Positions 10,459 through 27,150 of a stretch of DNA of 59,583 bases are shown here, one piece after another; position 1 is the first letter of the stretch; each line of letters begins with the position of its first letter. The notes below the pieces were generated by a model that worked only from the letters and a program-made list of their open reading frames with translations, was not told the DNA's origin and ran no database searches. Both the position numbers and the translations under genes were made by a program. Source of the stretch: a virus. Taxonomy: Duplodnaviria; Caudoviricetes. The DNA lies in IMG/VR virus record IMGVR_UViG_3300049432_000036, positions 1-59,583 of that record; one strand, given 5' to 3'.

Positions 10459-11472
10459 ATGGTTGCAAGAGGCAAGGTTGTCGTCGCCAAGTGGGGCGTG
10501 CCCTCGAAGGAGCCCGAGGACGTTCCGGATTTCCTCAGCAATGAGGAGATCGCGGAGAAGATGGGCGGTGAGCCCAAGGGCGTTTACCGCCTCAAGCTCA
10601 AGAAGATGGTCGTCGTCAAGAACAAGAACAACGACGACATGATCAAGATCACCGCCGAGATCTTCGAGACGGACAAGGAGAAGAAGGGCTACAACGGCTG
10701 GGCCTTCTGGACTCAGGAGAACGTCACCGAGGAGTCCGCCGGATACCTCAAGGCGTTCCTCCGGGCGTTCGGCGCTTCGTGGGCCGACTTCCAGCAGCGC
10801 ACGAAGATGACGCCGGAGACCAAGACCGAACCGGCCCAGATTGTCTCCATCGGCAAGGTCAACTTCGCCGGTACCAAGCCGGTCCTGGTCCGCGCCACGG
10901 TCGGTATGGGCCGGGCGCAGAACGGCTACGAAGCCCGTACCGAGATCAAGCGCTGGCTGCCGATGGCGGACGCCGACGCCGACGCCGATGAGGTCGAAGA
11001 CGCTGACGAGGTCGAGGATGAGGACCTGTTGGACGACGAGGACCTGGAGGAGTCGGCCGACGGCGGTGAGCTGGAGGATGAGGACGACGAGGAAGCGGAG
11101 CTGCGCGAAGAGCTGGACGGGCTGAGCCTCCCGGACCTTCGCAAGCGCATCAAGTCCAACGACGCCGACGCCAAGACGGTTGGGCTCAAGAAGCCCGCCC
11201 TGATTGACCTCATCGTGGAGCAGGAGTTGCTGCTGGACGACGAGGAAGAGCCGGAAGACGAGCTGGACGAAGACGAGGACGACGGCGGTGAGGCCGAACT
11301 CCGGGAGGAGCTGGAGGCGCTGACCATCGGCGCTCTCAAGCAGCGGGCCAAGGCCAACGGCGAGAAGGTTGTTGTCCTCAAGCCGATCAAGGACAAGGCT
11401 GAGGTCATCGACATCATCGTGACCCAGGAGCTTCTGGGCGATGACGAGGACGGCGAAGAACCGCCGTTCTGA
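10459..11472 (+). CDS. ssDNA-binding protein-like (DUF669-like) with acidic tail and two helical repeats
   Basis: Follows Sak4-like ATPase; beta-rich N-domain; D/E-rich tail ending EEPPF. Confidence 0.7.
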   Translation: MVARGKVVVAKWGVPSKEPEDVPDFLSNEEIAEKMGGEPKGVYRLKLKKMVVVKNKNNDDMIKITAEIFETDKEKKGYNGWAFWTQENVTEESAGYLKAFLRAFGASWADFQQRTKMTPETKTEPAQIVSIGKVNFAGTKPVLVRATVGMGRAQNGYEARTEIKRWLPMADADADADEVEDADEVEDEDLLDDEDLEESADGGELEDEDDEEAELREELDGLSLPDLRKRIKSNDADAKTVGLKKPALIDLIVEQELLLDDEEEPEDELDEDEDDGGEAELREELEALTIGALKQRAKANGEKVVVLKPIKDKAEVIDIIVTQELLGDDEDGEEPPF

Positions 11473-11642: not shown

Positions 11643-11936
11643 ATGAGTAAATTCCAAGGATTGAGTGATATCAATCCATTGCATATGCCTAGCAAGTTCC
11701 AGGAGGGACTGTGGGCCGACTACGTCATGGAGCAGGACGGCACAGACACCGAAGGCAACTGGCACGGCAGCTGTCCCCTGCATACTTGGGGGGCCGGTGA
11801 GCCGACTGCGTTGTTCAACTTCCAGTCTGGTGTGATGGTGTGTCTGGGCGATCCCTGCTGCCACGAGGGCAAGCGGGCAATCAGCCTTACCAACGTCCTG
11901 ACGCAGATGCGGAGCAACCTACATGAGAAACGCTGA
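11643..11936 (+). CDS. Stand-alone primase-type (CHC2-like) Zn-binding domain protein
   Basis: GNWHGSCPLH...ALFNFQSGVMVCLGDPC resembles the Zn domain of the next gene. Confidence 0.6.
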   Translation: MSKFQGLSDINPLHMPSKFQEGLWADYVMEQDGTDTEGNWHGSCPLHTWGAGEPTALFNFQSGVMVCLGDPCCHEGKRAISLTNVLTQMRSNLHEKR

Positions 11937-14766
11937 CAAGTACGTTCGGGCATTTGAACGTTTCCTTGTTGGCCAGCCCCAGTCCGATGGCGAGTGGAGA
12001 AGCTTCTGCCCGATCAACGAGGACCCGACGACTTCCAAGTCACCGAGTGCAAGTTTGAACTTCGAGACTGGTTTGTGGCATTGCCAGTCTTGTGGTAACG
12101 GCGGAACGATCCGGTTGCTATACCGGACTATGAGGGAACAGCGGGGAATGGAGTCTCCGGCGGCGCGGAAGAAGCCGGGTGACACCAGCAACGTCGTGAA
12201 CATCGACAAGACCAAGCCTTTGCCTAGTGCGGAGCAGGTTGAGTTCTGGCATAAGACGTTGATGGCGTCGGCTCGCGCTCACAAGTACGTGAGCGAGGAA
12301 CGCGGGCTGACGGATGAGACGTTGCGGAAGTATCTGGTTGGCTGGGACGGGCAACGATTCACCATCCCGGTCTATGACTCGGACGGCGACCTCGTCAACA
12401 TCCGCCGGTACAACCCGCGAGCCCGCAGCCACAAGGACAAGATGATTAGCTGGGGTCCTGGTTATGGGTCCGGCCGGATCTATGGGTTGGAGGTGCTGCA
12501 AGAGCATGACGAAGTCCTGTACACAGAAGGCGAGTGGGACAGGTTAGTTGCCATGCAGGCTGGGTTTCCGGCGGTGACGGATACGTCCGGCGCGTCGGTG
12601 TTCAAGCCTGAATGGGCTCGATACTTCAAGGGCAAGACCATCTATTTCGGTTTCGATGATGACAAGCAGGGCGACGCCGGAGCGATGAAGGCGACGCAGT
12701 ACCTGAAGCAAGTTGCGGCGGGCTGCTACCGGATCAAGCTCAACACCGGCATCGAGGGCGGCGACATCACGGACTACTTCGTGAAGCTCGATCGGTCGGC
12801 CGACGACCTGTGGCAGCTTCATGATGAAGCAGTGCCGCTTTGGCAGCCGGAGGAGAAGCACCAAGTACCCGCTGCGGGCCGTGCGGTCACGGTCGAGGAG
12901 TCGCAGAACGTCAACTACTCCGAGCCCTTGGAGTTGACGGTAATGATCATCGGGAAGCAGACACCGGCGTTCATCGCACCGAAGCGGATCGAAGCGACTT
13001 GCGGCATGAACGCCGGTGCCGTTTGCAACATGTGTCCGTTGATGGTGAATGACGGGAAGATCATGAAGACGGTTGAGCCGGATGACGAGAAGCTGTTGAA
13101 GTTCGTCAACATCGGCGACGCCCGGGTGAATGAGTTGTACGGCGAGATCACCGGAGCTATGTGCAAGAAGTTCGTTGACTACGATGTGACTGCGGCTTAC
13201 AACATCGAGGAGCTTGTAGTCACACCCTCGTTGGACTACCGCAGCGAGGACACCGAGACGCCCATCCAGCGTCGCGTGTTCAACGTTGGCACCTACTCCA
13301 CGCCAATCAACCAGACTGTGAAGATCATCGGCAAGCAGGTCGCCGAATCACAGACGCAACGTGGTACGTTCATGGGCTGGCATCTCCAAACGGTCAACAC
13401 TGACCTGGAGGAGTTCGAGATGACCCCTCGGATCATGCAACAGCTCAAGCGATTTCAAGTCAAGCCGGGTCAGTCCCCGCTCGACAAGTGCATGGAGATC
13501 GCACGGGATATGGCATCCAACGTCACGCACATCTACGGGCGACCTCTGTTGCACGTCGCGTATGACATGGTGTTCCATTCCGTCATCCAGTTCGACTTCG
13601 ACAAGAAGCCAGTGAGGAAAGGCTGGCTAGAGGCGCTGATCATCGGCGACACCCGTACCGGCAAGAGCGAGGCCGTAACGCACCTGAGGCGTCACTACGG
13701 AGCCGGAGTCATCAAGTCCTGTGAAGGAGCCTCATTCGCCGGTCTCGTGGGCGGGGCGCAGAACGTACCCGGCGGCAAGAGTGGATGGATGGTTACTTGG
13801 GGCGTGATCCCGCTCAATGATCGGCGGCTTGTGGTGCTGGACGAGATGTCTGGACTCATGGCCGTCAAGGAGCGGAACATCCTCGGTGACATGTCCTCAG
13901 TTCGATCCGAGGGCAAGGCCGTCATCAGCAAGATCGTCCAGGACGAGACCAGCGCTCGTACAAGGATCATCTGGTTGTCCAACCCGAGCGATGGAACACG
14001 GATCGCGGACCTGCCCGGGTCGGCGCTGAGGGCGATCAAGAAGCTCATCCACAACCCCGAGGACATCGCCCGTCTCGACTTCGCGATGGCCGTTGCAAAC
14101 AACGAGGTTGACGCCGACATCATCAACTCAACCGAACACAAACCAGTCCGGCACCGATACACGTCGGACGCCTGCCACAACCTCATCATGTGGGCGTGGA
14201 GCCGGAAGAAGGAGCAGGTGATCTGGGGCCAAGGTGCGGAGCAAGCTATCTATGACGCGGCGATCAGCATGGGCTCTCGCTACGTCTCTGATCCACCACT
14301 AGTACAGGTGGAGAACATCAGGGTCAAGATCGCCCGTATCGCCGTCGCGCTCGCAGCCCGCACGTTCTCGTGCTCGAAGAACGGCGACAAAGTCTGGGTA
14401 AGGAAGATGCATGTTGAAAGTGCGATCGAGTTCTTGGACGCGGTCTATTCGTCTGAAGCGATGGGTTACATGCGTTCTTCCCGGCGCGTACTCGTCACCC
14501 GGCAGGAAGCACAAGACTCCAAGGGCAAAGTGCGGAAGTTCCTCAAGAGCGAACCGCATGTCCTCGCTGCGGTTCGGGCGATCGGCGCGGAGACGTTTCG
14601 TTCCCGTGACTTTGAAGAGCAGGCGGCGCTGACCAAGGACGAAGCGAACTTGGTCATGAGGTCGTTGACCGAATGGCGGATGATCTCGCGTGAAGCGCGC
14701 GGCGCAGTCCGCTTCGAGCCAGCCATGACGGAAGTGCTGAGGGAGTTGGAAGATGCCGGATACTGA
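11923..14766 (+). CDS. DNA primase (Zn finger + TOPRIM) fused to MCM-like AAA+ helicase
   Basis: CP..PSASLN..GLWHCQSCG; TEGEWD and FDDDKQG TOPRIM motifs; GDTRTGKS, VVLDEMSG, SNP, IARLDF. Confidence 0.88.
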   Translation: MRNADKYVRAFERFLVGQPQSDGEWRSFCPINEDPTTSKSPSASLNFETGLWHCQSCGNGGTIRLLYRTMREQRGMESPAARKKPGDTSNVVNIDKTKPLPSAEQVEFWHKTLMASARAHKYVSEERGLTDETLRKYLVGWDGQRFTIPVYDSDGDLVNIRRYNPRARSHKDKMISWGPGYGSGRIYGLEVLQEHDEVLYTEGEWDRLVAMQAGFPAVTDTSGASVFKPEWARYFKGKTIYFGFDDDKQGDAGAMKATQYLKQVAAGCYRIKLNTGIEGGDITDYFVKLDRSADDLWQLHDEAVPLWQPEEKHQVPAAGRAVTVEESQNVNYSEPLELTVMIIGKQTPAFIAPKRIEATCGMNAGAVCNMCPLMVNDGKIMKTVEPDDEKLLKFVNIGDARVNELYGEITGAMCKKFVDYDVTAAYNIEELVVTPSLDYRSEDTETPIQRRVFNVGTYSTPINQTVKIIGKQVAESQTQRGTFMGWHLQTVNTDLEEFEMTPRIMQQLKRFQVKPGQSPLDKCMEIARDMASNVTHIYGRPLLHVAYDMVFHSVIQFDFDKKPVRKGWLEALIIGDTRTGKSEAVTHLRRHYGAGVIKSCEGASFAGLVGGAQNVPGGKSGWMVTWGVIPLNDRRLVVLDEMSGLMAVKERNILGDMSSVRSEGKAVISKIVQDETSARTRIIWLSNPSDGTRIADLPGSALRAIKKLIHNPEDIARLDFAMAVANNEVDADIINSTEHKPVRHRYTSDACHNLIMWAWSRKKEQVIWGQGAEQAIYDAAISMGSRYVSDPPLVQVENIRVKIARIAVALAARTFSCSKNGDKVWVRKMHVESAIEFLDAVYSSEAMGYMRSSRRVLVTRQEAQDSKGKVRKFLKSEPHVLAAVRAIGAETFRSRDFEEQAALTKDEANLVMRSLTEWRMISREARGAVRFEPAMTEVLRELEDAGY

Positions 14767-15185: not shown

Positions 15186-15316
15186 AGAAGCTCATCAAGT
15201 GCCAAGGCTGCGGGTCGAAAGTCTGGGTGCCGCAGGAGACCATGATCATGCCCCGGCACCGCAAGGCTGATCGAAGCCGCTGCCCGATGTCACAGAAGAA
15301 GGTGGAGACGGAATGA
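15182..15316 (+). CDS. Small Zn-finger protein (44 aa, not in ORF track)
   Basis: MKKLIKCQGCGSKV...PRH....RCPMS; ATGA overlaps at both ends. Confidence 0.6.
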   Translation: MKKLIKCQGCGSKVWVPQETMIMPRHRKADRSRCPMSQKKVETE

Positions 15317-16134
15317 GAGTTGCAATCCTCGGTAGCGGACCGGCGGGGATGATGGCTGCGGCGGCGGTCAGCCACGGACACGACTGGAGTGGTGGTCCGT
15401 ATGACATCCAGATCTTCTCCGCCGGTGGCAAGTCCTCGCTCTTCGGGGCGCAGTACTTGCATGCTCCTATCCCTGGCTACACTGACAATCGGTACCCCAA
15501 CGCCAAGCGCCCCATCAACTATCTCCTCCGGGGCGAAGCGGACGACTACCGGCTGAAGGTGTACGGGCCGATGTGGGATGGGACGGTGTCGCCGGAAGAG
15601 TTCACGGAGACCCACCACGCGTGGGACATCCGCCAGACGTACGACGCGTTGTGGAAGGAGTATGAACGCGACGTCAACGAGGTCCGCATGGACCCGGCGG
15701 GCATGCGATTGTTGATGGACGGCCGGACGGCGTACGGGTCGTTTGACCTGGTGATCAACTCGATCCCTCGCCCGGCCCTCTGCGCAGAAGGGCACCAGTT
15801 CTCCTCAACCCAGATCTGGGCGGCCGGGGAAGCGCCGGAGCTCGGCATCGACCTCGATCGGTTCAAGTGCCCGGACAACACCGTCATCTGCAATGGTGAG
15901 GATAGTCCCAGTTGGTACAGGCTTTCCAACATCTTCGGATACAAGACGGTTGAATGGCCGGAGCACATCAAGCCGCCGATCCCCTCATCCGCTCTCGTCA
16001 CGAAGCCGCTGAAGACGAACTGTGACTGCTGGCCGGGCGTGTTACACGTCGGCCGGTACGGCAAGTGGGCCAAGGGCGTGTTGTCCCACACGGCCTATGA
16101 GGAGGTTAAGGAGCATGTCTCGTCCAAGGTTTGA
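15313..16134 (+). CDS. FAD-dependent oxidoreductase (UDP-galactopyranose mutase-like fold)
   Basis: VAILGSGPAG dinucleotide-binding motif, GAQYLH, C-terminal GRYGKW. Confidence 0.8.
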   Translation: MRVAILGSGPAGMMAAAAVSHGHDWSGGPYDIQIFSAGGKSSLFGAQYLHAPIPGYTDNRYPNAKRPINYLLRGEADDYRLKVYGPMWDGTVSPEEFTETHHAWDIRQTYDALWKEYERDVNEVRMDPAGMRLLMDGRTAYGSFDLVINSIPRPALCAEGHQFSSTQIWAAGEAPELGIDLDRFKCPDNTVICNGEDSPSWYRLSNIFGYKTVEWPEHIKPPIPSSALVTKPLKTNCDCWPGVLHVGRYGKWAKGVLSHTAYEEVKEHVSSKV

Positions 16135-16753
16135 TGCGCCGGTTGTGGCGCTCGATATCGACGGGACGTTGGGTGACTACCATGGCCACTTCATCCGCTT
16201 CGCGGAGCAGTACCTAGGCCGCTCGCTTCCCGACCCGTACGCAGTGACCGGCGGGATACCGCTCTACAAGTATCTCCACATCAGCCACTCGATGTACCGC
16301 CAGATCAAGCTCGCTTATCGGCAAGGCGGCATGAAGCGCTCGATGCCGGTCTATGAGAATGCATCCAATCTGTCCAGGATGATCCGGCGGAACGGTTGCC
16401 AGGTGTGGATCTGTACGACGCGTCCCTATCTGCGCCTGGACAACATCGACCCCGATACACGCCATTGGCTACGGCGTCACAAGATCCAGTATGACGCGGT
16501 GTTGTTCGGCGAGCATAAGTATCGGGACCTCAAGAAAGCGGTTGGAGACCGCGTGTTGTTCGTCGTGGACGACCTACCACCGATGTTGGAGCAGGCGTCC
16601 GAGTCCGGTATGACAACCGTGCTGCGACGCCAGCCCTACAACGACGGTTGGTACTACTCTGCCAACCACATCGCAAGCGACCTCGAAGAAGTGATGGAAG
16701 TATTCAGGAAGGAGTTCACCAATTATGTCGAGTCACAACCACGGGTTCGGTGA
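16115..16753 (+). CDS. HAD-superfamily (5'-nucleotidase-like) phosphatase
   Basis: ALDIDGTL (motif I), CTTR (II), VVDD (IV). Confidence 0.85.
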   Translation: MSRPRFDAPVVALDIDGTLGDYHGHFIRFAEQYLGRSLPDPYAVTGGIPLYKYLHISHSMYRQIKLAYRQGGMKRSMPVYENASNLSRMIRRNGCQVWICTTRPYLRLDNIDPDTRHWLRRHKIQYDAVLFGEHKYRDLKKAVGDRVLFVVDDLPPMLEQASESGMTTVLRRQPYNDGWYYSANHIASDLEEVMEVFRKEFTNYVESQPRVR

Positions 16754-17495
16754 AGCCTGTCGGCCGTCGTGTGAGCTGTACGGCATGGGGAACGCGCAGA
16801 ACTCGCCGCGCCAGCCGACCAACCCCGACCCGATGAACCGGCCGATGCCGACCTATGCGGATCGAGGACGGCCCGCGCCCTCCCGGCCCGCCCAGGAACT
16901 GTTGGCGGCTGAGCGGTCGATGTCCCAGGCCGCCATGGGCCGGATGCCCGAAGAAGCAGAGCTGTCCAGTATCGCGGCGGGCCGACTCACTCCGCCGCCT
17001 TTGGCCCCGGCCCCGCAGTTGACGGACTCGGACTTTGTTGGCGGCAAGCCGTTGCGAACGGATCACCCGATGCCGCGTTCGAACGCCGACCTCGGCAGAC
17101 GATTGGAGGCCGATGGCCCCAATTACCAGGTTGACCAGTTCGCCGAGAAGCGCGAGGCGGATGACGCGTTGTGGCTGCGAGTCGGCATCAACGCCGATCT
17201 CGTCCCGCCACGAGTGATGGACATGATGCACAACCTGGCCACGGACGCGTTGCCATCGTTCGTTCGTCACAACCTCGAATACCGTGATGCTGACCAGGCG
17301 CTCGGATACCGAGGGCAGTTCGCCGAGATCTCTCATGTCGTGGCGAAGCTGAGGAAGCTCGTGTGGGATGATCAGTATGGTGTGACGTTCGAACACGTCG
17401 CATCTGATGAGGTGCGCAAGGAACTCAAGGCGCTCATCGGGCATGCACTGTTGGCGCTCGACCTACTGAAGGCAGGTAACAAGAATGGAAAGTGA
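16725..17495 (+). CDS. Protein with C-terminal all-alpha NTP-PPase-like (Nmad1/DUF1599-like) domain
   Basis: RHNLEY..LGYRGQFAEI..KLRKLVWD..LKALIGHALL; Pro-rich disordered N-half. Confidence 0.55.
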   Translation: MSSHNHGFGEACRPSCELYGMGNAQNSPRQPTNPDPMNRPMPTYADRGRPAPSRPAQELLAAERSMSQAAMGRMPEEAELSSIAAGRLTPPPLAPAPQLTDSDFVGGKPLRTDHPMPRSNADLGRRLEADGPNYQVDQFAEKREADDALWLRVGINADLVPPRVMDMMHNLATDALPSFVRHNLEYRDADQALGYRGQFAEISHVVAKLRKLVWDDQYGVTFEHVASDEVRKELKALIGHALLALDLLKAGNKNGK

Positions 17496-18231
17496 ACTAG
17501 AACTGAAGCGACCCCTCTGGGTGATTGGGGCCAAGGGCGGCAATCTCGGAGGGATGGTCGCGAAGGTCGCGAGTGACGACTGGTACTACAAGGAGATCAT
17601 CGTCACCGATACGGAGGTTGACGTTTGCAACCAGGAGAAGTTGGTACGGTTCGTCGCTGAGATCAGGAAGAGCTCACCGGAGACCGGCATCGACATCGCC
17701 TATTGCGCAGGCGTCAACATCCTGGATGCGATCATGGACGTGGACGAGGTGAACCTGTACCAAACGTTCAACGTCAACGTCATGGGGTTCATTCGAGTGA
17801 TGCAGGCGCTGGAGCGCGTGTACTACCCCGGCGACGAGCTTCCGATGATGACGAGGCAGACGCGCTCTAACGTGGTTGCTGTAGCTTCGGATGCCGCCCG
17901 GGTACCGATGCGCCGATCGATCACGTACTGCGCCAGCAAGGCCGCTCTCGTCCAAGCCGTGCGGGTCGCGGCGAGGGAGTTGGCCCCGTTCATCCGCGTC
18001 AACTCCGTCTCGCCGGGGATCATCGATGAGACCCCGATGACGGACACCATCGACCGCGAGGTCATGCGGCAGCGCTCGTGGACTCGGGATCAGCAGCTCG
18101 ATTACGAGCGCTCATCAATCCCGATGGGTCGGCGCGGACACAAAGGCGAGGTCGCCGACCTCATCCTGCACACCCTGCTCGGGCCGGTCTACATGACCGG
18201 CTCCAACATCGAGATCAACGGAGGCAAGTGA
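17485..18231 (+). CDS. Short-chain dehydrogenase/reductase (SDR)
   Basis: GAKGGNLG, CAG, YCASK catalytic motif, IRVNSVSPG, YMTGSNIEINGG. Confidence 0.92.
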   Translation: MESELELKRPLWVIGAKGGNLGGMVAKVASDDWYYKEIIVTDTEVDVCNQEKLVRFVAEIRKSSPETGIDIAYCAGVNILDAIMDVDEVNLYQTFNVNVMGFIRVMQALERVYYPGDELPMMTRQTRSNVVAVASDAARVPMRRSITYCASKAALVQAVRVAARELAPFIRVNSVSPGIIDETPMTDTIDREVMRQRSWTRDQQLDYERSSIPMGRRGHKGEVADLILHTLLGPVYMTGSNIEINGGK

Positions 18232-18233
18232 AC

Positions 18234-18725
18234 ATGCGTGGCATCAGCTTCGACGTACCGCTGGCGGGAAACATCAAGATCGACCAGCTGGCGTTCTGTG
18301 CCTGGGACGACGCCGACGAGGAGTTCATCAAGGACTTCCTGGGACTCCGGCACCGCAACTGGATCGAGGACACCGTGACGGCGCGCGGGCAGGTCGGCGC
18401 GCTGGACGACGTGACCAACGTCGCCAAGCTGCTCTTCAACTACGATCTCGACCACGAGATCGAGATCCTGCGGTACATCGAGGGGCCGAACTACCTGACC
18501 CTGGCGGACGTGCCCGGCGGCCGGATGTGCCACATCGGTTCCCATTTCATCGGCGATGGTCTCGTGCCCCGGGTCGATGCGCAGATCATCCAGCAGCTCG
18601 TGACCCAGGAGCATTCCAACCCGTTCCAGGCGGAGCACAAGCGCCACTACCGCTACACCATCTACAACACCTACCAGAAGCTGGGGATGTTCTTCAAGAT
18701 TATCGAGCGGTTGGACAATGCCTGA
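18234..18725 (+). CDS. VOC/glyoxalase-fold (epimerase-like) protein
   Basis: IDQLAF...EIEILRYIEGPNY...MCHIGSH...KIIER pattern. Confidence 0.55.
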   Translation: MRGISFDVPLAGNIKIDQLAFCAWDDADEEFIKDFLGLRHRNWIEDTVTARGQVGALDDVTNVAKLLFNYDLDHEIEILRYIEGPNYLTLADVPGGRMCHIGSHFIGDGLVPRVDAQIIQQLVTQEHSNPFQAEHKRHYRYTIYNTYQKLGMFFKIIERLDNA

Positions 18726-19020
18726 CATCCCGGGCAAGCTGCGCGAAGCGGCCGGGGTCTTCGAGGCCCGCAATGAGGTCTACCAGGACGCCTACAAGAT
18801 CGTGGGCAAGGTACTGGAGGACCTGTTCCCGAACGGCATGAAGCTTGTGTCGGAAGAGGACCACACGAGGTATCACCTCCTGGCCCTCATCATCGTGAAG
18901 CTGACTCGCTACTCGGCGAACTGGCAGACCGGTCACAAGGAGTCGATGGACGACCTCATCGTGTACGGAGCGATGCTGGCGGCGATCGATGACGAGATGC
19001 CGAAGCTCCCGGAGTTCTGA
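18718..19020 (+). CDS. DUF6378-like all-alpha nucleotide pyrophosphatase-like protein
   Basis: ARNEVY...VKLTRY...HKESMDDLIVY. Confidence 0.6.
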   Translation: MPDIPGKLREAAGVFEARNEVYQDAYKIVGKVLEDLFPNGMKLVSEEDHTRYHLLALIIVKLTRYSANWQTGHKESMDDLIVYGAMLAAIDDEMPKLPEF

Positions 19021-19192: not shown

Positions 19193-22100
19193 ATGGAGTA
19201 TGTATCCCTTCACCATCACAGCACTTACAGCTACATGGACGGCTTCGGGCCGGTCAAGGATCACGTCGAACGCGCGGCGGAACTAGAGATGAACGCTCTG
19301 GCCCTCACCGAGCACGGCAACGTCTCCTCTCATGTACAGCTGGAGAAAGAGAGCAACAGGCTAGGTATCAAGCCGATCTTCGGGCTGGAGGCTTACTGCG
19401 CGCCGTCGAACATGAAGGAGCAGAAGAACCGGCGGAAGTGGCACTTGACCCTGTTGGCTGAGACGGATGAGGGATACCGCAACCTCATGAGGCTTGTCAC
19501 CAAGTCGTGGGCGGAGGGCTTCTACCAGTGGCCCACCGTCCACGGCGAGTGGCTGAGGGAGCACAGCGAAGGGATCATCGCCCTGTCCGGCTGCGCAGAC
19601 TCTCATCTGTCTTGTACGTTGCTCGGCGGCAAGGGCCGCGAGACGGGCGACGAGCGGGAAGCCCTTGCTGTTATGAGGAATTACAAGAGGATCTTCGGTG
19701 ATAGGTACTATGTCGAGGTCCAGATGTTCCCCGAGTTGGAGCGGACGCGGAAGCTCAACCCTTGGTTTGCAAATGCTGCGGCCAAGCTCGGCGTGAAGAT
19801 CGTCGCGACCGCAGACTGCCACTACCCGTTGCCCGATGACAACAAGATGCAAACTATCCTTCACACGGCCGGGCGCGGACTTGGCACCGTGGACACGGCG
19901 GAGTCACAGTGGGAGTACAACATCCGGCTGTGCCCGCCGTCCTCGGACCGCGTTGTCATGGATCGCCTGCGGGCTACCGGCCTGACTAGGTCACAAGCCT
20001 CCCAAGCCCTCCATACAACGGCGGAGATCGCTAGCCGTTGCAGCGTTGAGCTTCCGAAGATGGATATGTTGAAGTTCCCTTTGCCTCGTGGGGTGAAGGA
20101 CAAGACTGAGCTGATCTGGTCTTGGCTTCGGGAAGGCTGGAAGTTCCGCTGGCAGACTGATGCCTACCTTCGAGAGCACAAGAAGGAGGCTGTAGAGCGG
20201 ATCAAGTACGAGATGGAAATGATCATCATGAAGGACTATGTTGATTACTTCCTCATGCTCTCGGATGCTGTGCGCTGGTGCAAGGAGAAGGCAGACCCGG
20301 TCGCCGTCGGCCCGGCCCGTGGGTCGGCCGCAGCGTCGTTGGTTTGCTACATTCTGCGCATCACGGAGATCAACCCGCTTCCTTTCCCCAACATGCTGTT
20401 CGAGCGGTTCATCGACATCAACCGAACCGACCTTCCTGACGTCGACCTGGACTTCGATGACGAGAACCGTTGGCAGCTCGTAGAGCACTTGACCGACTTG
20501 TACGGCGCGGACCACGTCGCCAACATCGGTACCTACACGAAGTACCGGGGCAAGAACTCCTTGGAGGATGTGGCACGTGCACATGACATCCCCGTTTGGG
20601 AGATCCAGCCGGTGAAGGATCTGATGATTGAGAGATCGGGCGGTGACTCCCGGCTGGACTCTTCGATCGAGGACACCGTGGACATGTTCCCGGCTGCGCG
20701 GGCCGTCTTCGACAAGCACCCCGAGTTGGAGTATGCGCTTCGGCTTGAGGGCAACATGAAGGCGTCTTCGGTCCACGCGGCCGGACTCGTGATCAGCAAC
20801 GACCCCATCACCGAGAACGTCGCGATGTATGAGCGGAAGGACAAGCACGGGAACTCGCGACGTGTGGTGAGCGTGGACAAGTATGACGCGGAGTACTTGG
20901 GCATGCTGAAGGCCGACTTCCTTGGACTCACCACCATGGGGATGGTAGCTCGTGCCATCAAGCAGATTGGGATGCCCCTCAACGACCTGTACCACCTGCC
21001 GTTCACGGATGAGAAGGTGCTGGAGGCGTTCCGCGAGAACGACGTGGTTGGCATCTTCCAGTTTGGCGGAGGTGCTACCAAGATTGTCAACGGAGATGTG
21101 AAACCGGACAACTTCCTGGAGCTGTGCGATATCAACGCGCTCTCCCGGCCGGGGCCGCTTCACTCGGGCAGCACCTCCGACTACATCGACATCAAGCATG
21201 GGCGGAAGAAGGCGGAGAGCTTCCACCCGATGATCGATGAGATCACGAAGCACACTTATTCCACAATCATCTACCAGGAACAGATCCTCAGAATCATCAA
21301 GGAGATGGGTGGTCTTCCCTGGACGCACGTCCAGGAGATCCGGCGCATCATCTCCCTCAAACGAGGGGTCGGCGCGTTCCAGCAACGGTTCGAGCAGTTC
21401 GTTGAAGGGGCGAAGGAGCACGGCGTTGACCGCACTCTCGCAGACCGCATCTGGAAGCGGTTGGTAACGGCTGGACAGTACGCCTTCAACCAGTCGCACT
21501 GTGTGAGCTATTCGGCCTTGGCCTACTGGCAGATGTACCTCAAGGTCTACCACCCGCAGGCGTTCTACGCAGCTTGTCTCGTGAAGTTCGACAAGATCCA
21601 GTACAAGCTGATGCGGGACGCTATGAGCCACGGGCTGGCGATCAAGCCGCCGGGTCTCAACACTGCGCACGTCGACTGGTACAGCGACGGCGATGTCATT
21701 CGCGCAGGATACAAGCAGATTCCCGGCGTCGGCTACAAGATGGCCGAAGCAATCATCGAGGAACGGGAGACCAACGGGCCGTTTGAGAACTGGGAAGATC
21801 TCATCAGGGTAAAGGGGATTGGCGAGAAGACCGCGCCGAAATACGCCCACTGGGCTGCACACGAAGACCCGTTCGGTATCCACCGCGTGGACCTCGTGTT
21901 GGAGCGGGTGCGGAAGGCGATCACGTCCGGCCGACTGATGGACCAGGACATGAAGGGTCGTATGATCCCGCTGCCCACGCCAAACTTCCGAGGTGCGGAG
22001 ATACCCACAGATCAAGGTGATGTAGCCGTCACCTACATCGGCATCCCGCAGAAGCGGAACCCGCAGGATGTCATCGAGGATGAGCGGGCGCGTACGGGTA

Positions 22101-22387
22101 AGAGCATGGCTGAGGTAACCGCCGAGATCAAGCGGCCGGACCTCTCGAAGAAGATGACCGTTGAGTGCTTCGACGACACGGATGTCTTGGTATATGTGAG
22201 GTTTGGCCGGTATGACTTCCCGCGCTTCGAGAAGGCGTTGTGGAATATGCGACTCAACCACGACGTGTTGATCGTGAAGGGCATGAAGCGGAAGGGCTTC
22301 GGTACCGGCATCCATGTCAAGGCGGCGTGGTGTATCGACCCGGATGACCTGTTAGAAGAGGAAGACGGCGAGGAGGATGAGTCATAG
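19193..22387 (+). CDS. dnaE: DNA polymerase III alpha subunit (DnaE-like, family C)
   Basis: PHP motifs HHHS/TEHG/DCHY; RGSAAASLV; catalytic PDVDLD; KADFLGL; AFNQSH. Confidence 0.97.
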   Translation: MEYVSLHHHSTYSYMDGFGPVKDHVERAAELEMNALALTEHGNVSSHVQLEKESNRLGIKPIFGLEAYCAPSNMKEQKNRRKWHLTLLAETDEGYRNLMRLVTKSWAEGFYQWPTVHGEWLREHSEGIIALSGCADSHLSCTLLGGKGRETGDEREALAVMRNYKRIFGDRYYVEVQMFPELERTRKLNPWFANAAAKLGVKIVATADCHYPLPDDNKMQTILHTAGRGLGTVDTAESQWEYNIRLCPPSSDRVVMDRLRATGLTRSQASQALHTTAEIASRCSVELPKMDMLKFPLPRGVKDKTELIWSWLREGWKFRWQTDAYLREHKKEAVERIKYEMEMIIMKDYVDYFLMLSDAVRWCKEKADPVAVGPARGSAAASLVCYILRITEINPLPFPNMLFERFIDINRTDLPDVDLDFDDENRWQLVEHLTDLYGADHVANIGTYTKYRGKNSLEDVARAHDIPVWEIQPVKDLMIERSGGDSRLDSSIEDTVDMFPAARAVFDKHPELEYALRLEGNMKASSVHAAGLVISNDPITENVAMYERKDKHGNSRRVVSVDKYDAEYLGMLKADFLGLTTMGMVARAIKQIGMPLNDLYHLPFTDEKVLEAFRENDVVGIFQFGGGATKIVNGDVKPDNFLELCDINALSRPGPLHSGSTSDYIDIKHGRKKAESFHPMIDEITKHTYSTIIYQEQILRIIKEMGGLPWTHVQEIRRIISLKRGVGAFQQRFEQFVEGAKEHGVDRTLADRIWKRLVTAGQYAFNQSHCVSYSALAYWQMYLKVYHPQAFYAACLVKFDKIQYKLMRDAMSHGLAIKPPGLNTAHVDWYSDGDVIRAGYKQIPGVGYKMAEAIIEERETNGPFENWEDLIRVKGIGEKTAPKYAHWAAHEDPFGIHRVDLVLERVRKAITSGRLMDQDMKGRMIPLPTPNFRGAEIPTDQGDVAVTYIGIPQKRNPQDVIEDERARTGKSMAEVTAEIKRPDLSKKMTVECFDDTDVLVYVRFGRYDFPRFEKALWNMRLNHDVLIVKGMKRKGFGTGIHVKAAWCIDPDDLLEEEDGEEDES

Positions 22388-22631: not shown

Positions 22632-22928
22632 ATGGCCCTTGGCAGCAATCGGGACAAGCAACCGACTCGGGTGGCGGAGATCCTGCTGAACGCGCAGGCT
22701 CTGGACGACCGGCGCCAGGTACAGATCAACCGGCAGATCCGGATCATCAACCGGCTCGTGGAGGAGAACACGGCCCTGCGGAACGGACTTGAGTCGATTC
22801 GCAACGACGAAGACCAGGAGATGACCGCCGTCGAAGCTGCGGTCGCCACCCTGGCTGGGGCAAACAACATCACCGAACGCTGGCACCGCGAAGACGCGGA
22901 GTGGGAAAAGGAGCAGGAGAAGAAATGA
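22632..22928 (+). CDS. Hypothetical coiled-coil protein
   Basis: Heptad-like sequence; ATGA overlap with next gene. Confidence 0.6.
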   Translation: MALGSNRDKQPTRVAEILLNAQALDDRRQVQINRQIRIINRLVEENTALRNGLESIRNDEDQEMTAVEAAVATLAGANNITERWHREDAEWEKEQEKK

Positions 22929-23614
22929 CCGAACCGAGCATCACCGGAATGGCAGCACAAGACGGCGGGACCGAACTGCTGAAGTACATGGGAACGGACG
23001 CGCAGCGTTGGGCTCAGGCGTTCATGAAGGTCGTGGCCGATCGGCCCGCGCCGGAGATCGATGAGGGCTTCATGATCGGCTGGTTCGCGAATGCGATCGA
23101 GACCGGCCGGTCCGCAGCCATGAGTAGTTCGGAGTACGTCACCAGCATCAACGAGTTCGCCCTCAAGGCCAACGAGACCGCCCACAAGAAGGGCTGGTGG
23201 AGCAACGCCAGGCAGTTCGACGGCGTACTGATGCTCATCGTCTCGGAAGCCAGTGAAGCCCTGGAGGAGTGGAGAAACAACCACAAGGAGGACGAAGGCT
23301 ACTGGAGCCTGCCGAAGTACCGGCCAGCGATCGAAGCCCTCCCTGAGGGACTGCGTGAGACCGCAGCCACGATCGAAGAGATGCCTGATGATGGAATCGA
23401 CATCGTGGATGAGAACTTCAATCAGGACGAGATCCAGGCTCTCGCCATGGAGGGCTTCCTGAAGCCTGAGGGTATCCCGTCCGAGCTGGCTGACATCGTG
23501 ATCCGCGTCATGGATTGCGCGGTGGAGTACGGCATCGACCTCGAAGACGAGATCACCCTCAAGATGGCCTACAACGCCACCCGGCCGCACAAGCACGGAG
23601 GCAAGCGCTCGTGA
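22925..23614 (+). CDS. MazG-like NTP pyrophosphohydrolase
   Basis: LIVSEASEALEEWR, ELADIVIRVMD, KMAYNATRPHKHG. Confidence 0.88.
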   Translation: MTEPSITGMAAQDGGTELLKYMGTDAQRWAQAFMKVVADRPAPEIDEGFMIGWFANAIETGRSAAMSSSEYVTSINEFALKANETAHKKGWWSNARQFDGVLMLIVSEASEALEEWRNNHKEDEGYWSLPKYRPAIEALPEGLRETAATIEEMPDDGIDIVDENFNQDEIQALAMEGFLKPEGIPSELADIVIRVMDCAVEYGIDLEDEITLKMAYNATRPHKHGGKRS

Positions 23615-23732
23615 GCCGATGGTGCACCAGAAACCACAGGATACATGGGCTGTTGCACTACACCAGCATCCGGACTCGCTTGATCCTGGAAGCGAGTCAC
23701 CTATCAACGTACGCTTGCAGGTTGAGGAACCG

Positions 23733-24218
23733 ATGACACTTCGTATCTACATCGCCGGGCCGATCATGGCGCCAGGCGCGGACGGCTTCCTGCCGACAAG
23801 GGCGGAAATCGAAGGCCGCAAGAAGAAGTTTTATGAGGTATACAACAGGATTCGGGAGAGCGTCGGCAACGACAACGTCGTGGTCAACCCGCTCGACATC
23901 CCGGCCTGCGGCGGTGTGCCAACGAACCCGTATCTCCACGCGGGATTGCCACAGTGTCCGTCAACCGAGATGGGCGGCGTCGAACACTCGTGGCAGTGTT
24001 TCCTCAGGTACGACCTGGAGAAGATGGTCATGTGCGATGAGCTCGTCATGCTCCCGGGCTGGGAAGGGTCGCCGGGAGCCTCAGTCGAACACAAGGTGGC
24101 GAAGATGCTCGGACTGGAGATCAACTTCTGGTGCGACGTCCACAACATCTCCCACCCCGAAGACGGTTTCAACCCTGCATGCGAAGGAGTGACGAATGTC
24201 AACCGTATTCATCCCTGA
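23733..24218 (+). CDS. DUF4406/nucleoside 2-deoxyribosyltransferase-like protein
   Basis: IYIAGP, VVNP, CDELVMLPGWEGSPGASVE. Confidence 0.85.
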   Translation: MTLRIYIAGPIMAPGADGFLPTRAEIEGRKKKFYEVYNRIRESVGNDNVVVNPLDIPACGGVPTNPYLHAGLPQCPSTEMGGVEHSWQCFLRYDLEKMVMCDELVMLPGWEGSPGASVEHKVAKMLGLEINFWCDVHNISHPEDGFNPACEGVTNVNRIHP

Positions 24219-25224
24219 GTGGCTCGTGACCCGGCGCGAGACGGACGACGGGCACCTGTTCCCGGCGGCCAGCCGACTCGACAGCGACACGACGGAGCAC
24301 GACGTTCTCACCAGGGATGTGGCGTTCAACCGTCACTCCATGAACGACGGGCACCACATCTCGCCGTACGACAACAACACGGTCCAGGTCGGCTCCGACA
24401 ACATCGAGGCGGCGCTGGTACAGGGGATCGATGAGGCGAACTTCAAGCGCGTCCTGTCGGCCGCGACGCGGGCCACGATCGGTATCGACATCACGCCGGA
24501 ATGGGAGGTGTGTGATTACAACTGGGATCTGGTGACCGAATGCAAGAAGGGCCACACGGATCACCGAGCCGACACGGTGCGCAGCCGACGCATGGGGTTG
24601 CGTGATCCGCTGGAGCCGGAGAAGGACTGGGAGGAGATGTTGAAGGGCGGTCTCCAGACGGCGCTAGAGTCGCAGACCATTGTGTTCGCGGTCACTGGGG
24701 TGTCGCGGACTTGTACGCATCAGCTCGTCCGCTCCCGGCGCGCAGCCTTCCACCAGCAGTCCCAGCGAGCTTCGTTCATGGGCGACCACCCCGAGATGCG
24801 GATGCCGGAGAGCGTGTGGCGGAAGCCGGACGTACGGCTGAAGTGGATCGAGGCGATCATGAAGTCGCACGAGGCGTATCGGGCTGCATGCGAGGCCGAT
24901 GTGGCATATCAGGACGCCCGGTTCATCTTGCCGGAGGGTACGACCAACTTCATCATGCTGGAGTACCCTGTGCGCGAGTTCCTGAACGTGTACGCCTACC
25001 GCGCCTGTCACATGTTCCAGTGGGAGATCGCTGCGGTCATGCGGGAGTGCCGGGAGGCGCTGCTGAAGGCACACCCGTGGTTGGAGCCGTACGTGAAGAT
25101 CACGTGTGAGAAGACCGGCGTGTGCGAGTTCCAGGGCTGGGAGAAGGTCGAAGGGCAGTGCACGCTGCCCATGGCGAAGGAAGACAACCGGCGGTTCAAG
25201 CCGGTTCATCACCGGATCGGATAG
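24196..25224 (+). CDS. thyX: Divergent ThyX-like flavin-dependent thymidylate synthase
   Basis: GVSRTCTHQLVRSR..FHQQSQR, DARFILP, QWEI; several canonical residues substituted. Confidence 0.85.
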   Translation: MSTVFIPEWLVTRRETDDGHLFPAASRLDSDTTEHDVLTRDVAFNRHSMNDGHHISPYDNNTVQVGSDNIEAALVQGIDEANFKRVLSAATRATIGIDITPEWEVCDYNWDLVTECKKGHTDHRADTVRSRRMGLRDPLEPEKDWEEMLKGGLQTALESQTIVFAVTGVSRTCTHQLVRSRRAAFHQQSQRASFMGDHPEMRMPESVWRKPDVRLKWIEAIMKSHEAYRAACEADVAYQDARFILPEGTTNFIMLEYPVREFLNVYAYRACHMFQWEIAAVMRECREALLKAHPWLEPYVKITCEKTGVCEFQGWEKVEGQCTLPMAKEDNRRFKPVHHRIG

Positions 25225-26289: not shown

Positions 26290-26554
26290 GGACAAGTCCC
26301 TTCCCCACCAGATCATCATCGGAACCGGACGGCATACCGGCGAGATGTCGGTGAGTTGTAACTGCCGGAAGTTCGGCAGGCAAGGCGGCGGATACTCGCC
26401 GATGGGGTTCGTGGCGTACGGAGACGGGTCGGAGCTCGAAGCCCTCAAGCTCTACAACCAGCCGGGCTGGCACAACAAGGTCGACGGGGAGCCGGACTTC
26501 CACCCCGAGCTCAACAACTACCAGAACGTCAAGAATGTGGAGGTCAATGAATGA
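26261..26554 (+). CDS. Hypothetical protein
   Basis: AGGAAGG RBS; CxC motif. Confidence 0.6.
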   Translation: MTTIARTVDRDKSLPHQIIIGTGRHTGEMSVSCNCRKFGRQGGGYSPMGFVAYGDGSELEALKLYNQPGWHNKVDGEPDFHPELNNYQNVKNVEVNE

Positions 26555-27150
26555 GCCGGTACACGTCGGAGACTACGGGGTGGGCTGTGGTGACGGCTTA
26601 CGATCCCGGCGGTACGACTGGCTGGAGTGTGATGTGTGTTGAACCCACAGCCCTGCTGGTGAAACGACACGCCTCCATCGAGCGGCCGAAGGTCTATGGG
26701 GCGGCCGGTAAGCCGCTCCCGGGAGTGCTGAAGCACTTTGCTTATGGAGAGATCACCGGTCCCCGTCCGGAGCAGTGCGACCAGCTTGCCGAGCTGATCG
26801 ATATGTGGGCTGACTGCGCGGTGGTCGGCGAGCGGTTCGACCTCCGCAAGTTCCTGCGCGATCCGGCGCTGTTGGAGCCCGTACGGTTTAACGCTTGCAT
26901 CGAATGGCATCTGTACGGGTCCGGCCGTCCGCTCCACGAACAGACACCAGAACAAGCGAAGTCACGATGGAACGACGACCGGCTGAAGCGGGCGAAGTCG
27001 CTGGGCCATCCTTGGTGGGTGGTTGGGAAGGATCACGCACGGGACGGCGTACGCCATGCGGGGTTGTTCCTGGATCGAGCTCGCCAGCAACCGGAGCTGC
27101 GCGGCAGAGCGTGGCCCCATTTGTTCAATCTCAAGGGAGAACTGAAGTGA
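26551..27150 (+). CDS. RuvC-like Holliday junction resolvase
   Basis: AYDPGGTTG, VVGERF, HARDGVRH (RNase H fold acidic residues). Confidence 0.8.
   Translation: MSRYTSETTGWAVVTAYDPGGTTGWSVMCVEPTALLVKRHASIERPKVYGAAGKPLPGVLKHFAYGEITGPRPEQCDQLAELIDMWADCAVVGERFDLRKFLRDPALLEPVRFNACIEWHLYGSGRPLHEQTPEQAKSRWNDDRLKRAKSLGHPWWVVGKDHARDGVRHAGLFLDRARQQPELRGRAWPHLFNLKGELK

Follow-up and report, generated by a model that had tools for sequence, protein, structure and literature searches.

The locus described here raises the question of whether a ThyX-like enzyme in which the folate-site and signature residues have been replaced is still a thymidylate synthase or has been turned to another reaction. The gene lies at positions 24196..25224 on the + strand of the virus record IMGVR_UViG_3300049432_000036 (Duplodnaviria; Caudoviricetes), and the window analysed is the whole of this complete 59,583-bp record, which has direct terminal repeats at its ends. 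The genome is siphovirus-like, with approximately 60% G+C and nearly all of its genes on the + strand. Megablast of the 10 kb around the ThyX-like gene against the phage collection gave zero matches, and the phage is without a close cultured relative. The gene represents a His-less, Cys-bearing, partner-dependent branch of ThyX, and the best reading of the sequences and of the structural model is that its product would be a functional flavoenzyme of this deep, virus-borne branch.

The open reading frame (ORF) encodes 342 amino acids from an ATG preceded, 7–8 nt upstream, by an AAGGAG Shine-Dalgarno sequence, and its 5' end overlaps the 3' end of the upstream gene by 23 nt. The Pfam family Thy1 (PF02511) matched residues 145–295, corresponding to profile positions 42–191, with an E-value of 5.1e-30 and a score of 105 bits against a cut-off of 24.8. 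PHROG 35637, 'thymidylate synthase', matched with an E-value of 1e-106, and the score obtained with the NCBIfam thyX equivalog TIGR02170 was 84.4 bits, below its threshold of 87.9 bits. Look-up of the clusters of ten family representatives gave no informative names. An AlphaFold2 model was calculated from an alignment of 121 sequences, consisting of the query and 120 of the best 150 matches after fragments of less than 205 residues, six rows that aligned poorly and the few lowest-ranked matches had been left out. The model had a predicted local distance difference test (pLDDT) score of 87.5 and a predicted template modelling score (pTM) of 0.84. The comparison with Thermotoga maritima ThyX proposed in an earlier note on this DNA returned the ThyX fold, and the top Foldseek matches were exclusively ThyX-fold structures, including Mycobacterium tuberculosis ThyX (2af6, E-value 2.4e-9), T. 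maritima ThyX (1o26, TMt 0.73), the PBCV-1-type enzyme (4fzb, TMt 0.77) and PolB (4p5b).

Active-site residues were mapped using a phmmer alignment to M. tuberculosis ThyX and a comparison of the 121-member profile with the Protein Data Bank (PDB), in which the 12-residue tag of T. maritima 1kq4_A was subtracted from the numbering. The altered motifs listed in the earlier note were re-read from the DNA and are all present. The canonical GH.S..EH is replaced by GLQTALES (residues 152–159, 24649..24672, + strand), giving H53 to L153 and H59 to S159, and both RSR and SQRA lie inside THQLVRSRRAAFHQQSQRA (residues 174–192, 24715..24771, + strand), where RHR has become RSR, S83 has become alanine and SxRY has become SQRA. 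The motif RHRxxSxxxxSxR, which we take as the definition of the ThyX motif, is read here as R-S-R-R-A-A-F-H-Q-Q-S-Q-R, with substitutions of the central His and first Ser and with both Arg, the second Ser and the final Arg retained. The complete set of replacements relative to T. maritima is H53 to L153, H59 to S159, H79 to S180, S83 to A184, N85 to H186, Y91 to A192, E144 to Q239, N163 to P258 and H178 to M273, with E86 to Q187 as a conservative change. The residues kept are T55 (T155), E58 (E158), Q75 (Q176), R78 (R179), R80 (R181), S88 (S189), R90 (R191), R147 (R242), R165 (R260), R174 (R269) and E182 (E277). The stretch from DARFILP (residues 240–246, with R242) to RACHMFQWEI (residues 269–278, with R269 and the first conserved cysteine, C271) at 24913..25029 on the + strand is retained, and the earlier note likewise lists the catalytic serine and the ARFILP and R..QWEI motifs as retained.

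The statement in the earlier note that the first histidine of GHxS stacks on the folate agrees with the available text of PMC11940539, in which H53 is stacked against the pteridine of folate in the ternary complex and also against the reduced isoalloxazine. According to the same text Y91 and N85 hold H53 by hydrogen bonds, and the contact between H53 and Y91 gates the folate site (PMC11940539). Because H53 is hydrogen bonded to Y91 and N85, the three lost residues can be regarded as a single functional unit. Tyr91 and Ser88 are called 'strictly conserved' and critical there, and mutation of Y91 lowers the rate of flavin oxidation 1000-fold (PMC11940539). In the accessible part of PMC8316439, Y91 is proposed as the general acid for water loss from the flavin carbinolamine, the Y91A variant consumes the carbinolamine more than 100-fold more slowly, and ThyX is described as able to activate formaldehyde.

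Binding of 2'-deoxyuridine 5'-monophosphate (dUMP), which the earlier note expected to be preserved, is probably kept, since the nucleotide-contacting Arg, Ser and Gln residues are all retained and nearly invariant. R179, R181, R191, R242, R269 and Q176 are each at least 90% conserved among the 121 members, S189 being the exception (S40 T11 G6 A1 in the R[ST]R class defined below). The parallel expectation for the flavin holds in part: T55, E58, R78, R80, R165 and R174 are kept, and H79, N163 and H178, which we take to have roles in binding flavin adenine dinucleotide (FAD), are replaced. Judged from the alignments, the gene belongs to a branch that lacks the H53/Y91/N85 gate as well as H59, H79, S83 and N163, with the residues predicted to bind and polarise dUMP kept. 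The lost residues serve in the T. maritima enzyme to hold the folate and the reduced flavin, and Y91 there accelerates transfer of the methylene.

The distribution of this branch was examined in three collections. A tblastn search of 50,697 phage records found 432 that match the ThyX-like protein, each at less than 60% identity. Thirteen of these matches were full-length, among them Mycobacterium phages Onyinye, Leopard and Aikoy (51%) and nine Streptomyces phages (42–45%); further matches came from Xanthomonas Carpasinavirus and Xylella phages (approximately 31%) and from 290 Pseudomonas (PB1-like) records (approximately 30%). By host the matches were to phages of Pseudomonas (290), Escherichia (27), Rhizobium (10), Serratia (8) and Xanthomonas (6). 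A set of 1.84 billion cluster representatives yielded 2169 matches at E-values of 1e-3 or lower, 541 at 1e-10 or lower and 34 at 1e-30 or lower, and IMG/VR contained 310 relatives, the best 80 of which are the relatives and loci counted below.

The 121 aligned sequences fall into an RHR class of 60, an R[ST]R class of 58 and 3 with other residues. The RHR class has the canonical residue in most members at each position compared (H53 in 54, H59 in 56, H79 in 60, Y91 in 51, N163 in 57 and E144 in 54). In the R[ST]R class the H53 position is L41/I9/H2, H59 is S18/F10/A9/T8/H3, Y91 is A25/H7/Y6/D6/T4, N163 is P18/N17 and E144 is Q44/E13. Among the 80 IMG/VR relatives histidine is absent both from position 180 (S46/T34) and from position 153 (L72/I4/S2/A1 and one gap), and position 192 is A57/D8/Y8/S4/V2/T1. 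A sequencing error or a pseudogene was considered as the source of the replacements and ruled out, the gene being intact and the replaced residues recurring in all 80 relatives. The His-less pattern is common to PB1-like Pseudomonas phages, Wifcevirus, Xanthomonas phages and cluster D mycobacteriophages; gp65 of the cluster D phage PBI1 is a further variant (R-Q-R, S.RF) that was missed at the tblastn threshold. When the RHR or R[ST]R label was placed on a FastTree phylogeny of the 121 sequences built with the trait columns removed, 6 changes were required, compared with 39.8 for shuffled labels. The joint loss goes back to few old events, and represents long-term retention of an altered site and not repeated convergent co-loss.

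The branch is accompanied by a second flavoprotein. In the window this is a predicted FAD protein of 273 amino acids (15313..16134, + strand; PHROG 8720) that starts MRVAILGSGPAG and has an N-terminal GSGPAG Rossmann motif. Its model (pLDDT 94) adopts a D-amino-acid oxidase (DAAO)/amine-oxidase-like fold, and Foldseek matched it to D-amino-acid oxidase, VioD, UDP-galactopyranose mutase, renalase and group-A flavin monooxygenases with E-values of approximately 1e-7 and TM-scores of 0.4–0.55. In the ESM Atlas the protein falls into virus-only clusters with DAO/amine-oxidase-like structural neighbours, and phmmer against the PDB gave chance-level matches to ribosomal protein uL2 only. A profile of this actinophage-type partner was built from 60 of 120 listed homologues, out of 832 matches in all, and detected the companion in 37 of 40 related records, including all 28 that are at least 90% complete. 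At 63 of the 80 loci it lies within 10 kb of the ThyX-like gene, 57 of these being found with the profile, 4 as PB1-type copies and 2 by iteration (L075, L076). Thirteen of the 17 loci without a nearby companion have cut upstream flanks; at the remaining four (L039, L082, L085, L090) about 10 kb of upstream sequence is present and the companion is still absent there, and for L039 a copy was found elsewhere in the whole record (G015). The two genes are directly adjacent in FoX7 and at five further loci (L063, L065, L066, L070, L071).

In PB1-like phages and FoX7 the partner is a protein of 314–333 amino acids that starts IVGAGLAGL and is encoded 1.2 kb upstream of the ThyX-like gene or adjacent to it. 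Alignment of the actinophage-type profile with the PB1-type partner using hhalign covered a 22-column GxGxxG segment only (probability 66%). Jackhmmer searches started from intermediate ORFs at L078 and L080 joined the window companion (approximately 1e-90) and the PB1/FoX7 partners (approximately 1e-23), these E-values referring to a small local database of the fetched loci. By these sequence links the actinophage-type and PB1-type partners are homologous, via intermediates. The PB1-type partner occurs in 362 phage records (Pseudomonas 292, Escherichia 27, Serratia 9, Rhizobium 8, Xanthomonas 6), a host spectrum that mirrors that of the ThyX-like matches, and the actinophage-type partner occurs in 126 (Gordonia 46, Microbacterium 36, Mycobacterium 32, Streptomyces 9). 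PBI1 and Sparcetus, both with the actinophage-type partner, also carry a Thy1 gene. The partner was found in none of three phages with a canonical GH/RHR/S.R[YF] ThyX (Bacillus Wes44, Stygiolobus rod-shaped virus and Staphylococcus MVC_VPHSA1), which is a small control. The companion flavoprotein is tightly linked to the His-less ThyX. A single in-frame TGA is seen in the partner gene of two records (G005:C1:13471-14208 and G021:C1:24446-25213), and could be a sequencing error, a pseudogene or read-through.

Outside the active site the ThyX-like protein differs from the canonical enzymes in three regions, two of which the earlier note had pointed out. The long N-terminal extension comprises approximately 68 residues ahead of the first ThyX-fold strand (residues 1–68, 24196..24399, + strand) and contains the motif DVAFNRHSMNDGHHISPYD. 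It is confidently modelled, the pLDDT climbing from 59 to above 90 and lying between 81 and 98 over residues 21–100, and its motif DVAFN[KR]HS.NDG.H[VI]SP.D is kept in Onyinye, Yara, Dryad and most of the 80 relatives. The PB1 and FoX7 forms are without this extension. The Cys/His-containing insertion (residues 103–139, 24502..24612, + strand), which reads W-E-x-C...C...H-x2-H, is lineage-specific, occurring in the query and 6 of the 80 relatives (L011-L014, L025, L027), and is modelled with a pLDDT below 50; its Cys-Cys-His-His (CCHH) pattern makes a zinc knuckle possible.

The third region is a C-terminal motif, C304-x5-C310-x11-C322 (25105..25161, + strand), that together with C271 (codon 25006-25008), two residues past the catalytic R269, gives four cysteines. 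Each of the four is at least 90% conserved in the 121 members, in the RHR and R[ST]R classes alike, and the 80 IMG/VR relatives include 80 with C271, 80 with C304, 80 with C310 and 78 with C322. The aligned M. tuberculosis and T. maritima ThyX sequences are without them. From this conservation the cysteines likely form a metal site, either structural zinc or an iron-sulfur (Fe-S) cluster, and none of the titles listed by a literature search on ThyX, phage and iron-sulfur described such a site in a ThyX subfamily. In the ThyX-like proteins of Yara (L003:5953-7050) and Dryad (L006:5983-7083) two CxxCxGxG motifs, which we take to be the DnaJ-type zinc-finger pattern, are inserted between the positions of C304 and C310.

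The identity of the reaction can be approached through Pseudomonas phages that carry the same genes. In the available text of a preprint (PMC12191111), the virion DNA of F8 and 14-1 contains novel thymidine-derived nucleosides of 362 and 390 Da, which stand in for about one quarter of T, in a TG motif, and which differ between the two phages. In the authors' interpretation one is derived from a tetrose sugar alcohol and the other is a cyclised derivative of an aldopentose, and they state that known modification genes are not present; in that text the biosynthetic genes are not named, and the words ThyX and thymidylate are absent (PMC12191111). Both 14-1 and F8 carry an RTR-type ThyX-like gene (ORF59 in 14-1), the partner (ORF65) and a fusion of a haloacid dehalogenase (HAD)-superfamily phosphatase with a DUF6378-like domain (ORF57). 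Compared with PaP001, the fusion protein is 98% identical in 14-1 and 79% identical in F8, and the ThyX-like protein 99% and 94%. By mass arithmetic, 362 corresponds to 5-hydroxymethyl-deoxyuridine (5-hmdU) plus tetritol minus H2O and 390 to 5-hmdU plus pentose minus H2O. Thymidine plus tetrose and thymidine plus pentose minus 2 H fit equally, and the formula therefore does not fix the linkage. A literature search, with supplementary gene lists lying outside it, found no publication tying this ThyX branch to phage hypermodification or to PB1-like phages. The ThyX-like gene is also carried by Bas98 and Bas101, and Wifcevirus members Bas98-101 have been reported in the available part of PMC11990801 to resist restriction-modification systems without any known genome protection. 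Among Escherichia phage records 27 have the ThyX-like gene and 27 the partner, Wifcevirus WFC being among them.

The suggestion of the earlier note was that the one-carbon donor or the reaction may have changed in this branch. The suggestion is strengthened by the replacements being clade-wide and accompanied by a tightly linked flavoprotein, by the score below the thyX equivalog cut-off, and by the thymidine hypermodification reported for Pbunaviruses with the same module. The reading that is tentatively favoured, at close to an even chance, is that of a flavin-dependent C5 transferase acting on dUMP, whose product would be a 5-substituted dUMP, for instance 5-hydroxymethyl-dUMP (5-hmdUMP), for use in thymidine hypermodification; it is favoured because F8 and 14-1, which have the same ThyX-like, partner and HAD genes, contain hypermodified thymidine. 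The enzyme would bind FAD and still take dUMP, and a one-carbon unit would be relayed from N5 of the reduced flavin to C5 of the uracil. The exocyclic-methylene intermediate would not simply be reduced to thymidine monophosphate (dTMP), and instead would be captured by water or by a sugar-derived or other nucleophile, yielding 5-hmdUMP or a related 5-substituted dUMP as the entry point of the hypermodification pathway. Capture of the exocyclic methylene of flavin-dependent uracil methylases by nucleophiles is discussed in the available text of PMC8989533. Later steps would use the companion flavoprotein and the short-chain dehydrogenase/reductase (SDR), phosphatase and pyrophosphatase genes of the same module, and the MazG-like and NT5C-like enzymes may cut back the pool of dTTP/dTMP that competes.

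In a more specific version, which we consider rather unlikely, the His-less ThyX would work without folate, in a two-flavoprotein system with its DAAO/sarcosine-oxidase-like companion. The companion would oxidise a small amine or sugar derivative and deliver a one-carbon (or larger) unit at the formaldehyde/iminium level, the flavin of the ThyX-like enzyme would pass it to C5 of dUMP, and a sugar-derived nucleophile would capture the methylene instead of its being reduced; the four cysteines would hold a metal or Fe-S centre for the altered redox cycle. If this were true, the product would be the direct precursor of the tetritol- and pentose-bearing Pbunavirus thymidines, and the same or a related hidden base would be expected in many actinophages.

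The genes surrounding the ThyX-like gene form a replication and nucleotide-metabolism module. Upstream lie a primase/helicase (11923-14766), the companion and an NT5C-like HAD-superfamily phosphatase resembling 5'-deoxynucleotidases (16115..16753, + strand; PHROG 415; Pfam NT5C E-value 4.9e-5, below cut-off), for which the listed ORF starts at 16022 and a start near 16115 is likelier. Homologues of the phosphatase adjoin the partner in Onyinye and Yara and occur within 10 kb at 53 of the 80 loci. It is followed by an SDR (17485..18231, + strand; Pfam adh_short_C2, E-value 1.6e-26), found at 18 of 80 loci and homologous to FoX7 gp51, two genes from the FoX7 ThyX-like gene. Next is a DUF6378-like helical protein of 100 amino acids (18718..19020, + strand), which matched FoX7 gp52 and the C-terminus of the PaP001 'PNKP' protein by tblastn; the DUF6378 assignment is supported by the weak match in PaP001 and by Atlas DUF6378 clusters scoring 0.95. 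In PB1 and FoX7 the DUF6378-like part is the C-terminal domain of the HAD phosphatase, in one fused protein encoded directly downstream of the ThyX-like gene. The two are separate genes in the window and are fused at L010:5611-6627 and L008:20398-21474.

A DnaE-type DNA polymerase III alpha subunit (19193..22387, + strand) is encoded within 10 kb of the ThyX-like gene at 70 of 80 loci. In the window it is one ORF of 1064 residues; in Onyinye (L002:2145-5693, gp82/gp84) and Sparcetus (L092:12446-15943, gp61/gp63) it is two ORFs split by a small gene. Relatives also encode family-2 glycosyltransferases, namely Sparcetus gp65 (L092:16164-17240, directly after DnaE) and Yara gp28 (L009:4350-5276). 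Between DnaE and the ThyX-like gene are a MazG-like nucleotide pyrophosphatase (22901..23614, + strand; PHROG 3301, E-value 4e-30) and a DUF4406/nucleoside 2-deoxyribosyltransferase-like protein (23619..24218, + strand; Pfam DUF4406, E-value 6.9e-12; PHROG 355), of a superfamily which we take to include dNMP N-glycosidases. These two were considered as the core partnership of the ThyX-like enzyme and ruled out, being present at 18 and 5 of the 80 loci respectively. A RuvC-like protein is encoded at 26551-27150. A 337-residue protein (10459-11472) gave weak matches to PHROG methyltransferases (phrog_9460, E-value 1.3e-11) and no Pfam family, and is possibly a DNA or nucleotide methyltransferase of the replication module.

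Thymidylate-synthase content was assessed in 46 genomes, namely those of the window, of five named relatives and of 40 IMG/VR records, among which 28 reach 90% completeness or more. ThyA (PF00303) was found in none of the 46. Each genome has one Thy1 gene, the exception being one record of 129,757 bp (G011, which contributes L029 and L033) that holds the ThyX-like and partner module twice, approximately 65 kb apart. The doubled record has the appearance of a phage of approximately 65 kb that is either repeated head to tail, as a concatemer, or duplicated in assembly.

Several observations weigh against a role in hypermodification. None of the 46 genomes has a thymidylate-synthase-like gene besides the ThyX-like one, as expected of an ordinary phage thymidylate synthase, and MazG, SDR and DUF4406 each occur at a minority of the loci (18, 18 and 5 of 80). 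No glycosyltransferase was found by Pfam in the window and no Walker-A 5-hmdU-kinase-like gene in the module; a Walker-A scan and Pfam over 47 further window ORFs likewise gave no downstream modification genes. The evidence for modification is confined to Pbunavirus phages, as distinct from the actinophage relatives and the window phage, and comes from a preprint that is not peer reviewed (PMC12191111), in the available text of which canonical T still accounts for about three quarters of the total in F8 and 14-1. SacII cuts the DNA of the PB1-like phage JG024. The confinement to a TG motif suggests that one or more steps are post-replicative, and the ThyX-like enzyme need take no part in these. 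On the tree the supported branches force only 2 changes, and the 3 independent pairs that exist are too few to give a test of co-loss any power; with so few evolutionary events, the fact that the lost residues vary together does not count as independent statistical evidence.

These points bear on a quite possible alternative, short of probable, in which the enzyme is an ordinary thymidylate synthase converting dUMP to dTMP with its cofactor handling re-wired. The lost residues would be a gate for the access of folate and NADPH, the companion, possibly with the four-cysteine site, would feed in reducing equivalents in place of direct NADPH oxidation at the ThyX flavin, and other side chains such as L153 and H186 would take over the packing of the pterin. 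Being the only such gene in genomes without ThyA fits this account, as do the retention of all the nucleotide-binding and polarising residues, the Thy1 score far above its Pfam cut-off, the position in a DNA-replication module beside DnaE, the lack of glycosyltransferase and kinase-like genes in the window, and the largely canonical T of F8 and 14-1. A dCMP deaminase, which would supply dUMP, is encoded in Yara and at 8 of 80 loci, H186, at the N85 position, is conserved in 57 of 80 relatives, and public records uniformly annotate the protein as thymidylate synthase. The account is harder to reconcile with Y91, which is called 'strictly conserved' in the available texts and whose mutation costs 100- to 1000-fold (PMC8316439, PMC11940539), yet is Ala in 57 of 80 relatives. 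The score also falls short of the cut-off of the thyX equivalog, the DAAO/amine-oxidase-like fold of the partner contains a single Rossmann domain and no separate NAD(P)H domain, and the hypermodified thymidine of Pbunavirus would be left without a candidate C5 enzyme.

A substrate other than free dUMP (UMP, dCMP, or uracil or thymine in DNA), in a pathway unrelated to dTMP supply, is unlikely. The structural matches include PolB (4p5b), a UMP/dUMP methylase that a ThyX review calls a neofunctionalised paralogue, the TG context implies recognition at the level of DNA somewhere in the Pbunavirus pathway, and the N-terminal domain and zinc-knuckle-like inserts could bind nucleic acid. However, the residues for phosphate (R179, R181, R242) and uracil (R269, S189) are called invariant, fitting a mononucleotide uracil substrate, and the PB1 and FoX7 forms have the same active-site changes without the extension and inserts. 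It is very improbable that the protein is a catalytically dead relic kept in a structural or regulatory role. The loss of several 'strictly conserved' residues would suit a relic, but conservation reaches at least 90% at approximately 20 active-site and core positions of the 121 diverged members, all 80 relatives have an intact gene in which Arg and Cys residues are invariant, the model is confident, and the conservation spans actinophages to Pseudomonas and E. coli phages.

The system can be compared with several that are already described. Canonical ThyX, or flavin-dependent thymidylate synthase (FDTS; TM0449, M. tuberculosis ThyX; PF02511, TIGR02170), is alike in fold, with Foldseek TMt values of 0.6–0.77, and in the nucleotide-binding residues Q75, R78, R80, S88, R90, R147, R165, R174 and E182. 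In contrast to it, the protein described here has nine residues replaced, a sub-equivalog score, a 68-residue N-terminal domain, the CCHH insert and a C-terminal tail that adds three of the four conserved cysteines, and its companion is absent from all three canonical-ThyX phages. PolB, the UMP/dUMP C5-methylase of polyoxin biosynthesis (4p5a/4p5b), is likewise a neofunctionalised ThyX fold and illustrates that the fold can change role; compared by PDB match alone (121-member profile, E-value 3.4e-24), it differs in being an enzyme of a cellular biosynthetic cluster that still methylates. For phage SP-15 the available text of PMC5977210 hypothesises that a Thy1-domain protein (gp130) is a hydroxymethyluridylate synthase, which is the same idea of a ThyX-type 5-hmdUMP maker in a hypermodified-thymine phage, likened here by proposed role alone; SP-15 has two Thy1 genes, whereas the phages described here have one (PMC5977210). 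The ThyA-family dUMP 5-hydroxymethyltransferases of phages M6, ViI, SP10 and PhiW-14 (PMC8989533, available text) have a similar proposed role, placing a one-carbon handle on dUMP in the nucleotide pool. Their fold and chemistry are unrelated, PF00303 is absent from the 46 genomes, and no homologue of the 5-hmdU DNA kinase was recognised in the window. A hypermodification pathway in the window phage, if present, uses enzymes other than a ThyA-type hydroxymethylase and a 5-hmdU DNA kinase.

ThyX is a textbook enzyme and an antibiotic target, and the H53/Y91 gate is central to models of its mechanism. A large virus-borne branch without this gate means either that the same chemistry has been solved again or that a new reaction has appeared. 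The branch is abundant, with 310 IMG/VR relatives and with the companion gene in approximately 360 PB1-like and related records and more than 120 actinophage records, and PB1-like phages belong to the Pseudomonas phages most used in therapy. The ThyX-like gene and its companion are concrete candidates for the thymidine pathway of Pbunavirus. If the favoured reading, a dUMP C5 transferase serving hypermodification, is true, an undetected modified thymidine may occur in cluster D and Onyinye-like mycobacteriophages, in Streptomyces, Gordonia and Microbacterium phages and in E. coli Wifcevirus, and would bear on restriction evasion, sequencing and annotation practice.

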